This document shows, one piece after another, positions 4,587 through 59,587 of a stretch of DNA of 64,000 nt. Source of the stretch: Anolis carolinensis (lineage: Eukaryota). The translations under genes were made by a program, and so were the position numbers. Numbering within the stretch: position 1 is the stretch's first letter; each line of letters starts with the position of its first letter. Where the stretch lies: assembly GCF_035594765.1 (NCBI RefSeq), contig NC_085842.1:291695749-291759748 (forward strand), given 5' to 3'. Below the pieces are notes generated by a model. That model did not search any database, was not told the DNA's origin, and saw only the letters and a program-made list of their open reading frames with translations.

Positions 4587-4776
4587 GGCATGAGGAAACT
4601 TGGGTTCTGCAGGTGTTTTGGACTTCAACTCCCACCATTCCTGACAGCCTCAGGCCCCTTCCTTTCCCCCCTCAGCCGCTTAAGCGGCTGAGGGGGGAAA
4701 GGAAAGGGCCTGAGGCTGTCAGGAATGGTGGGAGTTGAAGTCCAAAACACCTGCAGGGCCCAAGTTTCCTCATGGC
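4587..4776. mobile_element. Near-perfect palindromic hAT-type MITE
   Basis: About 95-bp arms centred on CTTAAG (4679-4684), related to 668-784. Confidence 0.85.
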
Positions 4777-6049: not shown

Positions 6050-6377
6050 GTAAAGGTAAAGGTTTCCCCTGACGTTAAGTCCAGTCGTGTCCGTCTCTGG
6101 GGGTTGGTGCTCATCTCCATTTCTAAGCCGAAGAGCCGGCATTGTCCATAGACACCTCCAAGGTCATGTGGCCGGCATGACTGCATGGAGTGCCGTTACC
6201 TTCCCGCCAGAGCGGTACCTATTGATCTACTCACATTTGCATGTTTGCGAACTGTTAGGTTGGCAGAAGCTGGAGCTAACAGCGGGCGCTCATTCCGCTC
6301 CTGGGATTTGAATCTGGGACCTTTCGGTCTGCAAGTTCAGTAGCTCAGCACTTTAACACACTTCGCCATCGGAGGCT
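6050..6377 (-). mobile_element. Sauria SINE
   Basis: AAAGGT repeat tail and body matching the other copies. Confidence 0.9.
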
Positions 6378-12677: not shown

Positions 12678-12814
12678 NNNNNNNNNNNNNNNNNNNNNNN
12701 NNNNNNNNNNNNNNNNNNNNNNNNNNNNNNNNNNNNNNNNNNNNNNNNNNNNNNNNNNNNNNNNNNNNNNNNNNNNNNNNNNNNNNNNNNNNNNNNNNNN
12801 NNNNNNNNNNNNNN
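12678..12814. other. Assembly gap
   Basis: Run of N. Confidence 1.
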
Positions 12815-43502: not shown

Positions 43503-44652
43503 TGTCAAGGACAGAACGCCACAAGATTCAAAGTAACAGAGTTTATTAGATTACAGAACTCAAAAATGCCCGTAAAACACAAGGGCCAGGCAGTTTTTGC
43601 CTTTAGGAGCAAAAAGGGGCAAAAGTAAATGTTCAAAAGATAAACCGGATTAAACCGGAGTTTAATCCGGGTAAAAAACAAACTGCTTGCTTCAGCCTGG
43701 GTATAAACGAAACGAAAGCCAAGGAACAAAAGATACAAAGAATGCAACTAATTGGCAGCAGATTCCTCTCTGCTGCCAACACTGTGCTTAGAGTAACTTG
43801 CGTCGCTCCCCCACACACACAGCAGACAGGATCTCCAACACGAGTAAATCAGCCAAGGATTGTAGCAGTTGAGTAGACCAGTTCCGTTCCGTAGATCAAA
43901 GCCAGAAGCAGACGTTTGTAGTTTTTCCAAGTCCAAGAAGGGGGGAAGACAAGCCGTGGTCAGTTCAGTCCGAGTTCTCAAAGCAGGAGATGGCGTCCGT
44001 CAAGAAGACGACGGAAGGTCAAGCTAATAAGAGTAAGCACAGGTTTGCACAAACAAATGCCCACACAATCCCTCCCGCCGTCTGACCCTGGATTCCAATC
44101 AACTTACGTCACAGCACAGGAAAGCACACAAGTCTTCAGGGAAGCGTCCCACACACACACGGATCCCAAGCGTTTGCCCAGATTACCTTGCCCAACGCAA
44201 TTTGCAATTGCTCTCAAGCCCCATTTTATGCCAGTTACAAATCTTCATCACTGTCAGCTGTCCTCCTTAACCCGGGCGTTTCCTCATCACTTTCCTCGTC
44301 AGAGCTGGAACACCTCTGACTACGCCCAACAGCATCTCCAGCTGTGGATCCCGTCCCATCCCTCCAGCTAAACCATGGGTCTAATCCTGAAGGTCCCCAT
44401 TCATCTTCTGTCCCATCATGGCCAGTGGCACCCACTTCCTCCCTTACCCGAGTCCAATCCATCTCATCCTCCTCTGAGCTAACCAGCCCCTCCTCCATTC
44501 TCTCCGTAAACCCTTCGAAAGACTCCTCGTCAGATGGTGCTGCAAATATGTCTCGCAGTCTTTTTCTCTCTCGCTCCTCGAGAGTATCTGACTCTCGAGG
44601 AGTCTTACGCCCACGTCTGTCAGTAACAGAGCCATGAGGCTCAATCATAACA
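43503..44652 (-). repeat. 3' LTR
   Basis: Direct repeat of 48696-49845, preceded on minus by the PPT GAGAGGGGATAG (44664-44653). AATAAA at 43547-43542. Confidence 0.97.
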
Positions 44653-47600
44653 CTATCCCCTCTCACAAAGGCCTCCTCCCCCGATGGCGGAGAAGTGGCA
44701 GTGATACCCTCCGCTATAGCACCACGACGACTAGAGGTATCAAGTTTCAACAGCGAACGATGAAAGACTGGATGGACCTTTAAACTAGACGGTAAACGCA
44801 AACGAAACGCAACAGAAGAAATCTTTTTAACGATAGGAAAGGGACCCAAATACCGAGGCGCAAACTTTCCCCCAGCCTGTTTAATATGTTTGGAAGATAA
44901 CCACACCAAATCCCCTTCTTCCAACTCCTCCCCTGCCTGCCTGTGGCGGTCAGCCTGAGTCTTCTGCGTTGCCTTAGCTTCCAACAGTAAGCGACGGGCA
45001 ACATCATGCAATGCAGCCATTTCCGAAGAGCGGTACACAGGGTCCGAAGAGACCACATTGGTCGACGGCGCCACACCTCCCCGTGGGTGAAAACCATAAG
45101 TTAGCTCAAATGGCGTATGCTGACTAGACGTGTGCACCGCATTGTTGTAAGCAAATTCCGCCACCGGTAACCACTTTACCCAAGCCGTGGGTTGATCTAA
45201 ACAAAAACAACGCAGATACTGCTCTAAGAGCCCATTAACCCGTTCCGACTGTCCATCCGTTTGCGGATGGAAAGCTGAAGACACGTTTAACTTAGTCCCC
45301 AAACACTCATGGAAGTGTTTCCAAAAGCGTGACACAAATTGCGGAGCCCTATCTGAAATAATCACCTCGGGTGCTCCGTGCAAACGATAGATGTGCTTTG
45401 TAAATAGTAAGGCCAACGTAGGGGCCGCCGGAATGGTTGAACAAGGAATAAAATGAGCCAGTTTACTAAATAAATCCACCACCACCCAAATACAAGTATA
45501 ACCCCCAGACTTAGGCAAATCTGAAATAAAATCCATGGAAATGATTTGCCATGGCCTCTCCGGAACAGGTAAAGACGATAACAACCCTCTAGGGCGCCCA
45601 ACAGGCGTCTTACTCTGCTGACAAACGGCGCAGCTGTCACAAAAGCGCAGAATGTCTTGCCGCATCTTTGGCCACCAGTAGCTCCTGGTGATAAGCTGTA
45701 CGGTCTTGAACCTGCCAAAGTGCCCAGCCATGGGTTCGTCATGGTGGGCTCTAATCACCTCCAACCTGAGGGTCCCTACTGGTACGTAAACCTGCCCCCT
45801 ACGCACCAATACCCCGTCTTGATCCTGGAGATGCGGCAGTATGGTACGGTTACCTGCAGAGAGCAGCATCAGTTGCTCCTGAGTCCATACATCATCCTTC
45901 TGAGCCTCAAGGATCTGGTCATGTAACCCAAGCTCATTATCTACAACACACAGAGAGGCAGTAGGCAAGATGGTCTGACATACTACCTGCTCATTGGTCT
46001 TAAATTCCGGCTTGCGGGATAAAGCATCGGCCCGCAAGTTTGCCTTCCCCTCCACGAACTGCACCTTGAAGTTAAACCTGGAGAAAAACAAAGCCCAGCG
46101 GATTTGACGCTGGTTTAACTTCTTTGCTGTTTGCAAGTGTTCTAAGTTCTTGTGATCAGATCTGACCACGATCTGGTGCCGTGCCCCTTCAAGCCAGTGC
46201 CGCCACACCTCAAACGCCACCTTAATCGCCAACAACTCCTTCTCCCATATGGTATAGTTCTGCTCGAAGGGTGTTAGTTGCCGCGAGTAAAATCCACAGG
46301 GACGCAAGGTCCCTGAGGAATCCTTCTGAGACAATACAGCCCCCAACGCGTAGCTAGAAGCGTCCGCTTCTACCACGAACGGTCTGTCAACATCAGGATG
46401 GGTTAGTATGTTGTCCGATTGAAAACTAGACTTTAGTTGTAGAAACGCCTCGTGAGCTTCCCGCCCCCACACAAATGGCTGTTTCTTGCGCAGAAGCTGC
46501 GTCAAAGGTACCGTGAGCTTTGCAAAATTCGGAATAAACTCCCGGTAGTAATTAGCGAAACCCAAGAACCTTTGTACATCCTTCTTAGTCTTCAGCTCCT
46601 GCCATGAGTTGACGGCGTCAACCTTATGTGGGTCCATTTTAAGTTCCCTACCTGACACTACATGACCTAGGAACTCCACTTCAGGCACATGAAAGACGCA
46701 CTTGGAAGCCTTGGCGAAAAGCCCATTAGCCCGCAGTCGGTGCAGAACCTGCTTGACATGTTGACGATGTTCTTTCTCGTCCTTAGAAAAAATCAAGATA
46801 TCATCCAAATAAATCACTAAAAATTGGTCAATTAGGTCCCTGAACACATCGTTCATGAACCTCTGGAATACCGCAGGAGCATTACAAAGCCCAAAAGGCA
46901 TGACTCGGAACTCGTGGCATCCGAAACACGTGTTAAATGCCGTCTTCCATTCATCCCCTTCCCGTATACGGATTAAGTTATAGGCCCCCCGCAGGTCAAG
47001 CTTGGTAAAGACCTTAGCCCCTTGCACCCTTGATAACAGTTCCGAGATTAAAGGCAGCGGGTACCTATCCCGAATGGTGTATTTGTTTAGGATCCGATAA
47101 TCGCAGACCAACCTAAGTTCCCCAGTCTTTTTGGCTACAAAGAATACCGGTGCCGCAGTTGGAGAACTAGATGGGCGAATAAACCCCTTGGCTAAATTTT
47201 CATCTAGAAACTCCCGCAAAGCTTGCCTTTCCGGTACAGTCAAGGCATACAGCCTCCCTGCTGGCAGTTTCGCACCTTCTGCCAACTTGATGGCGCAATC
47301 ATATGGCCTGTGCGGTGGTAATTTGTCCGCTTCTCTTTTACAAAATACATCAGAGAACTCCCCATACTCAACAGGCACTCCCTCCATATCAGAATGAGTA
47401 ACATTTAGAGTGCAACAATCCTGCCTCTTTAAGATCACTTTACGTGTTGCCCAATCTACATGTGGGTTTACTACAGCTAGCCAATCCATCCCCAGGATCA
47501 CATCATATCTAGGCAAGCTCGTAATATCCCACACAAACGTTCCCGTTACTCCCTGCACCTCCCACGTTACTGCTGAGGTTTCATGGTTAACCACCCCAGT

Positions 47601-47858
47601 CTCCAGCAGTCTCCCATCTGCTCCTTCCACCCACACGTCGCATGCCTTGCGCACTCTAGGAATGCCATGCTTCTTAGCAAACTCAATATCTACATAGGAG
47701 ACCGTAGCTCCTGAGTCCAGCAGTGCCAAAGTAGAAACAAGTTCCCTTCCCCCAACAGATAATGTAATGGGTACGAAAACATGCTTCCTCCCCTCAGTTG
47801 ACTGCTTGAGGAGCCCTAGTGCGTTGGACTCACGTCGCACTAGGGCTGGCCTTTTCCC
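44235..47858 (-). CDS. pol: Pol (protease, RT, RNase H, integrase with GPY/F motif and LTR-encoded acidic tail), expressed by -1 frameshift from gag
   Basis: LLDSGAT (PR), MPFGL and YLDDILI (RT), EADAS (RH), HH..GH..CxxC and D..D..E (IN), RYLGPF. Open for about 1200 codons with no stop. The frame is -1 to gag and open through the slippery site. Confidence 0.96.
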   Translation of the reverse strand, partial: GKRPALVRRESNALGLLKQSTEGRKHVFVPITLSVGGRELVSTLALLDSGATVSYVDIEFAKKHGIPRVRKACDVWVEGADGRLLETGVVNHETSAVTWEVQGVTGTFVWDITSLPRYDVILGMDWLAVVNPHVDWATRKVILKRQDCCTLNVTHSDMEGVPVEYGEFSDVFCKREADKLPPHRPYDCAIKLAEGAKLPAGRLYALTVPERQALREFLDENLAKGFIRPSSSPTAAPVFFVAKKTGELRLVCDYRILNKYTIRDRYPLPLISELLSRVQGAKVFTKLDLRGAYNLIRIREGDEWKTAFNTCFGCHEFRVMPFGLCNAPAVFQRFMNDVFRDLIDQFLVIYLDDILIFSKDEKEHRQHVKQVLHRLRANGLFAKASKCVFHVPEVEFLGHVVSGRELKMDPHKVDAVNSWQELKTKKDVQRFLGFANYYREFIPNFAKLTVPLTQLLRKKQPFVWGREAHEAFLQLKSSFQSDNILTHPDVDRPFVVEADASSYALGAVLSQKDSSGTLRPCGFYSRQLTPFEQNYTIWEKELLAIKVAFEVWRHWLEGARHQIVVRSDHKNLEHLQTAKKLNQRQIRWALFFSRFNFKVQFVEGKANLRADALSRKPEFKTNEQVVCQTILPTASLCVVDNELGLHDQILEAQKDDVWTQEQLMLLSAGNRTILPHLQDQDGVLVRRGQVYVPVGTLRLEVIRAHHDEPMAGHFGRFKTVQLITRSYWWPKMRQDILRFCDSCAVCQQSKTPVGRPRGLLSSLPVPERPWQIISMDFISDLPKSGGYTCIWVVVDLFSKLAHFIPCSTIPAAPTLALLFTKHIYRLHGAPEVIISDRAPQFVSRFWKHFHECLGTKLNVSSAFHPQTDGQSERVNGLLEQYLRCFCLDQPTAWVKWLPVAEFAYNNAVHTSSQHTPFELTYGFHPRGGVAPSTNVVSSDPVYRSSEMAALHDVARRLLLEAKATQKTQADRHRQAGEELEEGDLVWLSSKHIKQAGGKFAPRYLGPFPIVKKISSVAFRLRLPSSLKVHPVFHRSLLKLDTSSRRGAIAEGITATSPPSGEEAFVRGDSVMIEPHGSVTDRRGRKTPRESDTLEERERKRLRDIFAAPSDEESFEGFTERMEEGLVSSEEDEMDWTRVREEVGATGHDGTEDEWGPSGLDPWFSWRDGTGSTAGDAVGRSQRCSSSDEESDEETPGLRRTADSDEDL
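47812..47858 (-). promoter_or_regulatory. -1 programmed ribosomal frameshift signal
   Basis: G GGA AAA heptamer (47858-47852) in the gag frame, 4-nt spacer, then a perfect 12-bp stem AGCCCUAGUGCG/CGCACUAGGGCU with a 12-nt loop. The gag stop lies in the stem. Confidence 0.88.
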
Positions 47859-48640
47859 GAAAACTGGGAAGGTTTCACATTACAATTTTTGGCAAAATGC
47901 CCAGCATTCCCACAGTACAAACACAAGCCCAGCTGCCTCCTACGGCTCTTTTCCTCTGTAGACAGCTTTTTAAAGACCCCAAGCTCCATGGGCTCTTCCC
48001 CCATCACCACAGGTGCCCTGGTTACATGCATGGGTGGCGCACACATTGCTTTTGAGTGTTTACGAGCCTCGAACCTTGCGTCTAAACGCAGCACCTTAGC
48101 TACTAAGGCGTCCCAGCTTTCAGCCGGCTCCAAGCGTGCTAATTCATCCTGGAGCATATCACTTAACCCGGCAGTAAATAAAAGCATGAATGCATTTTCC
48201 CCCCAATCCAGCTGGTGGCGATACAGGTTAAACTTATTTAAGTAATCCAAAACAGTCCCCTTTCCCTGTTTCAACCGATACAGAGCCCACCCAGCGTTCT
48301 CCGTGCGGAGAGGATCCCCAAAAGTATCAGTTAACAACTTTTTGAAATTATTCAAATTGTCCTTGACTGGGTCATTTCCCAAAATTAAATTAGTGGCCCA
48401 TTGTCCTGCGGGACCGGTCAACAAACTCAAAATAAAGGCCACCTTGCTAGTGTCTGTAGGAAAAGCATGAGCACTGAGCTGAGAAAAATAAAGCTCCACT
48501 TGTGCCAAAAAGGTTGGCAACTTGCACCTGGTTCCGTCAAAGCGTTCAGGAGTCAAAACATGTCCTTTCACAGCCTGAGCTGTTTGGATAACGGTAAAAG
48601 CCGTTTGCAATTGGTCTACTTTGGCCCTTAACTCATCCAT
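47840..48640 (-). CDS. gag: Gag (266 aa, capsid-like domain plus one CCHC knuckle; PEG10/Sushi-like)
   Basis: PERFDG...FL.Q, KVAFILSLLTGPAGQWA, LKQG..V..Y...F, EEPMELG and CLYCGNAGHFAKNC (CX2CX4HX4C). Confidence 0.95.
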   Translation of the reverse strand: MDELRAKVDQLQTAFTVIQTAQAVKGHVLTPERFDGTRCKLPTFLAQVELYFSQLSAHAFPTDTSKVAFILSLLTGPAGQWATNLILGNDPVKDNLNNFKKLLTDTFGDPLRTENAGWALYRLKQGKGTVLDYLNKFNLYRHQLDWGENAFMLLFTAGLSDMLQDELARLEPAESWDALVAKVLRLDARFEARKHSKAMCAPPMHVTRAPVVMGEEPMELGVFKKLSTEEKSRRRQLGLCLYCGNAGHFAKNCNVKPSQFSGKGQP

Positions 48641-48682
48641 CGTCTTCCTGACGGGTTTATTGCTGCAATAAACTTTTTATGG

Positions 48683-48693
48683 GCGTTGGGCAA
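48683..48693 (-). promoter_or_regulatory. Self-priming primer-binding site
   Basis: TTGCCCAACGC starts 2 nt after the 5' LTR, lacks the TGG of a tRNA PBS, and is exactly complementary to GCGTTGGGCAA at 49391-49381. Confidence 0.85.
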
Positions 48694-48695
48694 TC

Positions 48696-49845
48696 TGTCA
48701 AGGACAGAACGCCACAAGATTCAAAGTAACAGAGTTTATTAGATTACAGAACTCAAAAATGCCCGTAAAACACAAGGGCCAGGCAGTTTTTGCCTTTAGG
48801 AGCAAAAAGGGGCAAAAGTAAATGTTCAAAAGATAAACCGGATTAAACCGGAGTTTAATCCGGGTAAAAAACAAACTGCTTGCTTCAGCCTGGGTATAAA
48901 CGAAACGAAAGCCAAGGAACAAAAGATACAAAGAATGCAACTAATTGGCAGCAGATTCCTCTCTGCTGCCAACACTGTGCTTAGAGTAACTTGCGTCGCT
49001 CCCCCACACACACAGCAGACAGGATCTCCAACACGAGTAAATCAGCCAAGGATTGTAGCAGTTGAGTAGACCAGTTCCGTTCCGTAGATCAAAGCCAGAA
49101 GCAGACGTTTGTAGTTTTTCCAAGTCCAAGAAGGGGGGAAGACAAGCCGTGGTCAGTTCAGTCCGAGTTCTCAAAGCAGGAGATGGCGTCCGTCAAGAAG
49201 ACGACGGAAGGTCAAGCTAATAAGAGTAAGCACAGGTTTGCACAAACAAATGCCCACACAATCCCTCCCGCCGTCTGACCCTGGATTCCAATCAACTTAC
49301 GTCACAGCACAGGAAAGCACACAAGTCTTCAGGGAAGCGTCCCACACACACACGGATCCCAAGCGTTTGCCCAGATTACCTTGCCCAACGCAATTTGCAA
49401 TTGCTCTCAAGCCCCATTTTATGCCAGTTACAAATCTTCATCACTGTCAGCTGTCCTCCTTAACCCGGGCGTTTCCTCATCACTTTCCTCGTCAGAGCTG
49501 GAACACCTCTGACTACGCCCAACAGCATCTCCAGCTGTGGATCCCGTCCCATCCCTCCAGCTAAACCATGGGTCTAATCCTGAAGGTCCCCATTCATCTT
49601 CTGTCCCATCATGGCCAGTGGCACCCACTTCCTCCCTTACCCGAGTCCAATCCATCTCATCCTCCTCTGAGCTAACCAGCCCCTCCTCCATTCTCTCCGT
49701 AAACCCTTCGAAAGACTCCTCGTCAGATGGTGCTGCAAATATGTCTCGCAGTCTTTTTCTCTCTCGCTCCTCGAGAGTATCTGACTCTCGAGGAGTCTTA
49801 CGCCCACGTCTGTCAGTAACAGAGCCATGAGGCTCAATCATAACA
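48696..49845 (-). repeat. 5' LTR
   Basis: TGTTATG...CTTGACA on minus. No difference from the other LTR seen by eye, and all overlapping ORF translations are identical. Confidence 0.97.
49416..49423 (-). promoter_or_regulatory. TATA-like box of the LTR promoter (copy at 44223-44230)
   Basis: CATAAAAT about 30 nt upstream of the predicted +1 (49391). Confidence 0.7.
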
Positions 49846-50088
49846 GAGACTCTACTGTACTTATAGAAGACTTGGATATGCTTAAGATTTTGCAATAGAT
49901 ATTATAACCACTCTCTGGACTGCTGAGATGCAGGATGAAACCACATTAGTATTATAGAATGGAGGCTTTTATCTTCCTATTGCCCAGTTTGCTCCTGCAC
50001 AATTCTGCTGAGCACCTTTGAGAATTCCAAAGGCTCTGCCCTAAACTACATTTCCCTGAATTCTGCAGGAGCAAACTAGGCTATAGGG

Positions 50089-50210
50089 CAGCCATGGGCA
50101 AACTTCAGTCCTCCAGGTGTTTTGGACTTCAACTCCCACAATTCCAGCTGTTAGGAATTGTGGGAGTTGAAATCCAAAACACCTGGAGGGCCAGAGTTTG
50201 CCCATGGCTG
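50089..50210. mobile_element. Palindromic hAT MITE
   Basis: CAGCCATGGGCAAACT / AGTTTGCCCATGGCTG, TSD CTATAGGG. Confidence 0.88.
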
Positions 50211-50329
50211 CTATAGGGAGACGAAAGCCTCAGTTATATAACACTAATGTGATCTTGTCAGCAAACATTTATTTTTTTAATTGATTGTTTGGAAGGTTTT
50301 GCTGCCTGGACCCCCAAAGGCCCTCCATA

Positions 50330-59367: not shown

Positions 59368-59587
59368 GTAGGGTTGTTATATGTCTTTCGGGCTGTGTGG
59401 CCATGTTCCAGAAGTATTCTCTCCTGACGTTTTGCCCACATCTATGACAGGCATCCTCAGAGGTTGTGAGGTATGCCTGCCATAGATGTGGGCAAAACGT
59501 CAGGAGAGAATACTTCTGGAACATGGCCACACAGCCCGAAAGACATACAACAACCCTGTGATCCCGGCCATGAAAGCCTTCAACAAC
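59368..59587. mobile_element. Penelope pLTR inverted pair
   Basis: Arms ~59370-59454 and ~59473-59557 are near-perfect reverse complements. Flanking duplication ACAATATTGCA (59357-59367, 59588-59598). Confidence 0.85.

Follow-up and report, generated by a model that had tools for sequence, protein, structure and literature searches.

The window analysed here, a stretch of 64,000 nt from the Anolis carolinensis genome, contains an LTR retrotransposon of the Ty3/gypsy type, which is intact, lies on the minus strand, and has gag followed by PR-RT-RH-IN. The features that delimit the element and its genes are listed first; segment X and arm A are defined in the next section.

43503..44652, minus strand: 3' LTR, containing a second self-primer, a second X and a second arm A (44015-43997)
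44235..47840, minus strand: pol ORF (PR-RT-RH-IN), in the -1 frame, extending 418 nt into U3
44653..44664, minus strand: polypurine tract
47840..48640, minus strand: gag ORF, 266 aa, with Retrotrans_gag, DUF4939 and Ty3 capsid matches and a weak zinc knuckle
48696..49845, minus strand: 5' LTR, 1150 bp, TG...CA, matching the 3' LTR exactly at offset 5193
49846..49850 (other copy at 43502-43498), minus strand: 5-bp target-site duplication, GTCTC

The LTRs show 100% identity over 1150 bp, with an exact-match run that also takes in one common flanking G, and, being identical, they give no time depth within the window. The best matches of pol are Anolis carolinensis entries of 96-99% identity, in clusters of 75 and 46 members, and for this reason the lizard family appears to be young and multi-copy. 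The 64-kb window holds no further copy or solo LTR of the element, Rfam gave 0 matches at E <= 1 over the whole element, and a single pol query against viral contigs gave no match.

An RT-RH tree of 110 sequences places the element among reptile, amphibian, and fish elements, in a clade of 25 tips with support 0.957. We interpret this clade as the vertebrate part of the Tf1/sushi group; the tree includes no named reference element and its remaining tips are mostly more distant relatives. We presume that the clade represents the V-clade (vertebrate) chromoviruses, a name used in PMC6317226. The element resembles V-clade members such as sushi-ichi and Amn-san in its RT-RH grouping, its self-priming PBS, and an AATAAA near the LTR end. 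Unlike many relatives with PF00385, it shows no match to this chromodomain, the strict criterion for a chromovirus, in pol at E <= 0.1. The close copies P0007 and P0010 likewise have none, and P0045, P0048, and P0049 carry PF00385.

The pol tail (44652-44235, minus) runs 139 codons into the U3 of the 3' LTR and stops just ahead of the TATA-like box. It follows an integrase without chromodomain match, contains 28% Asp/Glu, and is 87% identical to P0010; in the chromodomain-bearing P0048 and P0045, pol seems to continue beyond a similar junction too. The gag-pol overlap (47858-47812, minus) has a G GGA AAA heptamer in phase, a 4-nt spacer, and a 12-bp stem, in a stretch that folds at -25.3 kcal/mol, and is likely a -1 frameshift signal, resembling that of PEG10. 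Elsewhere in the window we observe palindromic short repeats (4589-4774, 59370-59557, and 50082-50217), which we take to be MITE-like, a family of dispersed 300-bp repeats (at 6050, 7762, 9512, 25783, and elsewhere), and, far from the element, an assembly gap of 137 N (12678-12814).

Leader, self-primer and predicted RNA ends

The RNA leader, read on the minus strand, contains the following features.

49417..49423, minus strand: putative TATA-like box CATAAAA, 32 nt before the predicted start
49381..49391, minus strand: predicted RNA 5' end and 11-nt self-primer, 11/11 Watson-Crick complement of the PBS
49264..49276, minus strand: segment X, which can pair locally with part of arm A in competition with arm B (13 bp, 2 G:U, with 49211-49199)
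49190..49208, minus strand: arm A of the 19-bp duplex, in the predicted R
48735..48740, minus strand: AATAAA, likely poly(A) signal, giving a predicted R of about 680 nt and a very short U5
48694..48708, minus strand: 6-bp hairpin across the LTR end, adjoining the PBS (P 0.97-0.99), corresponding to the pretzel 5' duplex and U5-IR-like
48683..48693, minus strand: PBS, 2 nt after the LTR, without the TGG start of a tRNA-type PBS
48655..48673, minus strand: 8-bp hairpin directly 5' of arm B (P 0.96-0.99), containing a second AATAAA (48661)
48636..48654, minus strand: arm B with the gag ATG (48640-48638)
48641..49391, minus strand: leader of 751 nt without upstream AUG (shuffle mean 9.2; AUG-free in 0/5000 shuffles)

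On sequence grounds, the element is of the self-priming (Tf1) type, because its primer and PBS are complementary at 11/11 positions, the primer lies 32 nt after a TATA-like box, and the PBS does not begin with TGG. The mechanism is described for Tf1 in PMC7175516 and PMC4600332, and the former reports a structure-dependent RNase H cleavage after nt 11. Sushi LTRs typically carry an AATAAA close to their 3' end (PMC3601003). With a start at 49391 and the AATAAA at 48740, arm A lies inside the predicted R and is therefore predicted to be present at both RNA ends.

The AUG-free leader supports both the predicted start and scanning, and suggests that Gag is translated from the long RNA, a short start near the gag ATG being a possible alternative; for comparison, U3 contains 15 AUG in 454 nt. 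Stable hairpins are predicted in R (48973-48944 and 48863-48838, minus) together with a long irregular stem (49112-48871), with P 0.93-1.0, and these predicted structures are candidates for packaging or dimer signals. The second AATAAA, just past the PBS, is buried in the 8-bp hairpin (48673-48655, minus) that stacks on arm B.

A predicted long-range duplex between R and the gag start

The initial annotation had reported an ungapped 19-bp pairing, about 540 nt in span, between R and the segment that contains the gag AUG. We confirm this complementarity, the duplex A:B, on the transcribed strand (49208-49190 with 48654-48636), where it comprises 17 Watson-Crick and 2 G:U pairs. It is the longest ungapped helix both of the 792-nt leader (-33.8 kcal/mol) and of the 4739 nt that precede the 3' LTR, and a bulged 6-bp helix (49216-49211:48632-48627) prolongs it. 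Arm A, about 540 nt from the gag start, lies some 490 nt ahead of the LTR end and some 450 nt upstream of the AATAAA at 48740, hence not in the predicted U5, and arm B begins 28 nt past the PBS. The order in the RNA is primer, X, A, PBS, B, so that A:B crosses the primer:PBS helix. The pairing of X with A uses 10 of the 19 bases of arm A, and a pairing as strong occurs in 1/1000 shuffles, in a test made post hoc.

The complementarity of A and B is beyond shuffle chance: its stacking energy of -38.4 was reached in 0/2261 dinucleotide shuffles of the leader (mean -21.8, sd 2.5). By length, 19 bp with any G:U content occurred in 18 of these shuffles, and a stronger helix is present in 10 of the 158 tiles of real window sequence, several of these helices coinciding with palindromic repeats. 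These last two counts favour a neutral reading, in which A and B match by chance, or descend from a short inverted duplication that arose through template switching, and have no function in a young family. The lack of time depth between the LTRs also leaves room for it, and the energy distribution and, as described below, the position of the duplex go against it, so that we find a neutral origin unlikely.

The earlier argument that the two G:U pairs favour RNA-level selection holds in part. Both are indeed G:U on the transcribed strand, and the best helix on the antisense strand is at -24.0. The asymmetry is nevertheless weak evidence, and was rejected as strong evidence, because both pairs would be G:U by chance with p = 0.25 (reasoned) if both changes were transitions, and because a search on the transcribed strand favours G:U. 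In contigs from four sequencing runs, none of the 40 variants listed, out of 211 in 48300-49900, falls in arm A or B, where about one is expected, so that this count carries little information. One contig of a diverged copy aligns to 49188-49238 only, its match ending 2 nt beyond arm A; the match of another begins at 48653, the edge of arm B. These match edges may be a hint in support of A:B.

Predicted folds of the leader

When the leader is folded, a check that had been proposed with the duplex, A:B is found in both the MFE and the centroid folds. Under nested folding, which is free of pseudoknots, two states come out close in energy: one has A:B and no primer helix (-250.9), the other has the primer helix with X:A and a free gag AUG (-245.2). 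Unconstrained, the probability of A:B is 0.70, 0.32, and 0.50 at the three RNA lengths folded, and the primer helix is excluded. If arm B is absent, the primer helix has P 0.96 and X:A about 0.78-0.79; if B is present, X:A has P 0.02-0.21. X:A is thus the predicted alternative in the absence of B, and provides the competing partner that a switch would need and that was missing from the initial annotation.

The primed state was imitated by keeping primer and PBS unpaired during folding. A:B then has P 0.99, 0.93, and 0.80 for the three RNA lengths at 37 C, and 0.98, 0.81, and 0.64 at 28 C, whereas X:A has P <= 0.06 and the 6-bp hairpin adjoining the PBS has P 0.97. A:B, the primer:PBS helix, and this hairpin are predicted to be compatible as a pseudoknot, in which A:B would close a domain around the PBS. 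The state with A:B and the primer helix has -241.1 plus -19.4, the pseudoknot penalty not being included, and all three fold states lie within model error, so that folding cannot choose among them. The 9 nt next to the PBS (48682-48674) are predicted to be unpaired, and no other duplex is predicted on the 3' side. A short PBS-adjacent duplex at 48770-48761 was considered as a pretzel arm and rejected, with P 0.0 in the primed state. The proposal that A:B holds the 5' region close to the PBS for self-priming is therefore retained as to the closed PBS domain and its compatibility with a pseudoknot; the nested folds, which exclude the primer helix, do not bear it out.

These states could also be read with the opposite polarity. 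A:B would then be the translating, unprimed state, keeping the first 11 nt off the PBS and the cap usable, and the RNA in particles would refold to X:A and primer:PBS with a free AUG. The closeness of the two nested energies and the high probability of the primer helix without B agree with this, and so does the AUG-free leader, which points to cap-dependent scanning. A helix at the cap would hinder such scanning. The exclusion between A:B and the primer helix, however, stems from the ban on pseudoknots in the algorithm, and the relatives described below bear on this polarity in both directions.

Another reading, missed so far, follows from the copy of arm A in the 3' R (44015-43997): B could pair with this copy and circularise the genome, or with arm A of a second RNA and dimerise it. 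Pairing of B with the 3' copy may also take over once RT degrades the 5' R, which would place the acceptor beside the strong-stop DNA. Both copies pair equally well with B (-36.5 each), but when both ends are co-folded 5'A:B has P 0.73 and 3'A:B 0.001, a two-strand penalty disfavouring the latter, and in isolated R-U5 arm A is sequestered in X:A (P about 0.78).

A third possibility is that A:B serves only translation or 3'-end control, by damping Gag, by a ribosome shunt, or by discriminating the 5' from the 3' poly(A) signal, without any role in priming. It would fit an AUG inside the helix and an arm B found only after the 5' LTR. A CaMV-type shunt needs upstream AUG or short ORF features, and was rejected because the leader has no upstream AUG; the lack of upstream AUG or short ORF points to full scanning. 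Occlusion of the poly(A) signal at the 5' end was likewise rejected, as the AATAAA is predicted to be more accessible in its 5' context than in its 3' one, opposite to suppression. We regard control of this kind alone as very improbable.

LTR-gag junctions in related elements

Ty3/gypsy contigs occur inside bacterial genome records and MAGs (L018-L060, L141-L148, and L197), where they are likely host or laboratory contamination. Five vertebrate-type LTR-gag junctions among them were tested: L020, which belongs to the fish clade of the RT-RH tree, and L143, L144, L147, and L197, which were found through gag similarity or the DUF4939 profile and are probably of fish origin. L146, with only about 13 nt of LTR, was excluded. 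The last 80 nt of the LTR were compared with the 45 nt after the PBS against 300 shuffles, in windows picked after inspection. Helices as strong were obtained in 0/300 shuffles for L020, L147, and L144, in 7/300 for L143, and in 129/300 for L197. In a wider 120/70-nt test, the counts are 0/400 for L020, 1/400 for L147, 0/400 for L144, 86/400 for L143, which loses significance, and 316/400 for L197.

Four of the five junctions thus have a stem between LTR and gag start around the PBS, with its LTR arm in U5, and, L143 and L144 being sister families, three of four independent families carry it. In all four positive loci, the 3' arm begins 18-19 nt past the LTR end, a loop of 37-43 nt contains the PBS, and the stem covers or adjoins the predicted gag start. 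The arm sequences differ among L020, L147, and L143/L144, and from those of the window. Counts of pair changes across the loci were discarded, since the registers are off by one between loci and the columns are not homologous. In the 80/45-nt test, the window's own U5 has no such stem (162/300 shuffles as strong), as expected if arm A replaced the U5 arm. A:B also lies on the AUG just past the PBS, where these relatives place their stem, and both observations argue against a neutral origin of the duplex.

In L147, L143, and L144, the stem is clear of the PBS and persists when the PBS is blocked, contrary to the opposite polarity. By contrast, the U5 arm of L020 can slide between a PBS-invading, AUG-covering register (-54.6) and a PBS-freeing register (-51.2), as that polarity would have it. 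Since, in addition, all duplexes of the published pretzel occur together, we consider it unlikely that A:B marks the translating state. In L020, and probably in L147, the arm comes after an AATAAA-like signal and may thus be absent from the 3' RNA end, which speaks against end-to-end pairing.

We made several further observations at these junctions. A tandem repeat at the gag start of L020 (590-660) underlies the sliding of its U5 arm, and the leader of L020 (82-642) has 0 AUG in 561 nt, as that of the window has 0 in 751 nt. The sole nearby in-frame ATG of L143 (110-170) is inside the LTR, in the U5 arm of the stem, and neither L143 nor L144 (reverse strand 219-280) has an ATG at the usual position after the PBS.

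An automated search recovered no self-primer in the fish-type loci, four of which lacked an upstream LTR or a match while L020 gave its U5 arm; by eye, L020 has a 10/11 self-primer match about 545 nt upstream, common to L141. All 11 non-vertebrate loci with a located LTR end show a self-primer-like match of 9-13 nt. The U5 test was passed by 2/11 of them (1/150 and 3/150 shuffles) and the AUG test by 1/11, short stems being liable to escape these tests. A scan for the junction pattern gave 46 matches in viral sequences, 0 of them with gag, and 16 in genomes, one of which (L208) corresponds to the L147 contig. Neither a fish-specific profile nor 35 genomes of the same bacterial order yielded any new vertebrate locus; the profile scans gave mostly distant loci, and the metagenome scan spanned 4/64 parts.

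Comparison with known systems

The initial annotation had likened A:B to the HIV-1 U5:AUG pairing; the closest precedent is instead the three-duplex pretzel of Tf1/sushi elements (PMC10085805). As presented there (after Lin & Levin 1997, 1998 and Butler et al. 2001), self-priming of Tf1 needs, besides the primer:PBS duplex, two more duplexes, each of which joins sequence next to the PBS to LTR sequence that lies downstream of the primer; other Tf1/sushi elements are able to form the pretzel too. The element shares with this structure the 11-nt self-primer:PBS duplex, a predicted duplex adjoining the PBS on its 5' side (hairpin 48708-48694, P 0.97), and, in topology, an LTR-to-post-PBS duplex, A:B, which crosses the primer helix but starts 28 nt past the PBS. 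It differs in the length of this candidate third duplex, 19(+6) bp, in the position of the LTR arm, which lies in the predicted R some 490 nt ahead of the LTR end, in the covering of the gag AUG, and in the competition of X for arm A. We file A:B as a variant of the Tf1/sushi pretzel, and not as a U5:AUG switch, because its arm is outside U5 and its conformers are only predicted. The literature searched, at abstract level, contains no report of an LTR:gag-AUG duplex in Tf1/sushi elements, and a vertebrate form that covers the AUG may be described in the 1997-2001 originals.

A:B also resembles retroviral long-range pairings. In the R/U5:gag interactions reviewed in PMC4878616 (HIV-1 U5:AUG, FIV, and MPMV LRI-I/II), LTR sequence also pairs with the gag start across the PBS, the pairing is specific to full-length RNA, and a translation/packaging switch has been proposed. 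An alternative conformer of the arm, as in retroviruses, is predicted here in X:A (P 0.78 without B), and an HIV-like translation/packaging switch is plausible for A:B. In contrast to retroviruses, the element has no env, its primer is its own 5' end, which results in a pseudoknot, and the arm lies in the predicted R; no dimer-initiation site was identified in the element, unlike in retroviral leaders.

Long-range pairings near the gag start or PBS are also known from Ty1, where CYC5:CYC3 accompanies a 5' pseudoknot (PMC3592414), and from HIV-1 gag:U3R (PMC1976439), and both are linked to reverse transcription. They are precedents for end-to-end pairing, with the difference that the partner there is unique 3' sequence, whereas here it is a repeat at both ends of which folding favours the 5' copy. 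Taken with the co-folding result and the position of the arm in L020 and L147, circularisation or dimerisation through A seems to us an improbable main role.

Model and implications

We propose, with slightly more confidence than doubt, that A:B is the third arm of the pretzel, moved far up R, where it closes the PBS-presenting domain and covers the AUG in full-length RNA. This reading is favoured by the absence of any shuffle that matches the energy of A:B, by the presence of the central duplex and the 5'-adjacent duplex as in the published geometry, by the stability of A:B when primer and PBS are blocked (P 0.80-0.99), and by the positionally similar stem in 4/5 vertebrate-type junctions, which the U5 of the window does not have. 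It is weakened by the start of B 28 nt past the PBS, so that the arm is not strictly PBS-adjacent, by the variation of nested A:B with RNA length and its exclusion of the primer helix, by the reliance on five junctions, two of them from sister families, in test windows chosen post hoc, and by the low pass rates of the non-vertebrate loci.

In the mechanism that we envisage, A:B would complete the priming fold around the PBS and at the same time hide the gag AUG. Because arm B is found only downstream of the 5' LTR, A:B would be specific to full-length genomic RNA and could mark it for priming, and perhaps for packaging. Wherever B is missing, in the 3' R copy and in LTR-only transcripts, X:A would represent the off-state, and perhaps it would do so during translation as well, with scanning ribosomes then detaching B from A. 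Such roles of A:B in priming, packaging, or translation are our inference.

A broader and more speculative hypothesis, which we hold to be doubtful, is that vertebrate Tf1/sushi elements turned the third duplex of the pretzel into a U5:AUG-like switch, coupling the shut-off of Gag to a self-priming that sacrifices the cap. The lizard family would then have rebuilt this switch as a 540-nt three-way toggle between X:A, A:B, and 3'A:B, with B passing from the A copy in the 5' R to the one in the 3' R to drive strand transfer. If true, a retroviral translation-versus-packaging switch would exist in a retrotransposon lineage, through convergence or older ancestry. Should A:B be no more than a pretzel arm, it would extend only modestly a structure already known from 1997-2001. 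What distinguishes this case is an LTR arm far up the predicted R, 540 nt away, with a 13-bp local competitor that gives two alternative predicted folds.

Self-priming elements cut off their own capped 5' end, so that one RNA cannot serve as mRNA and genome together. Tf2 solves this choice by alternative start sites (PMC5341516). The setting in the lizard is a young, intact, and apparently multi-copy vertebrate family, whose lineage is related to PEG10 and RTL1, two genes domesticated in mammals. In this family, a duplex that would complete the priming fold and cover the AUG, and that has a defined alternative partner, offers a testable model of how an RNA is assigned to be mRNA or genome.
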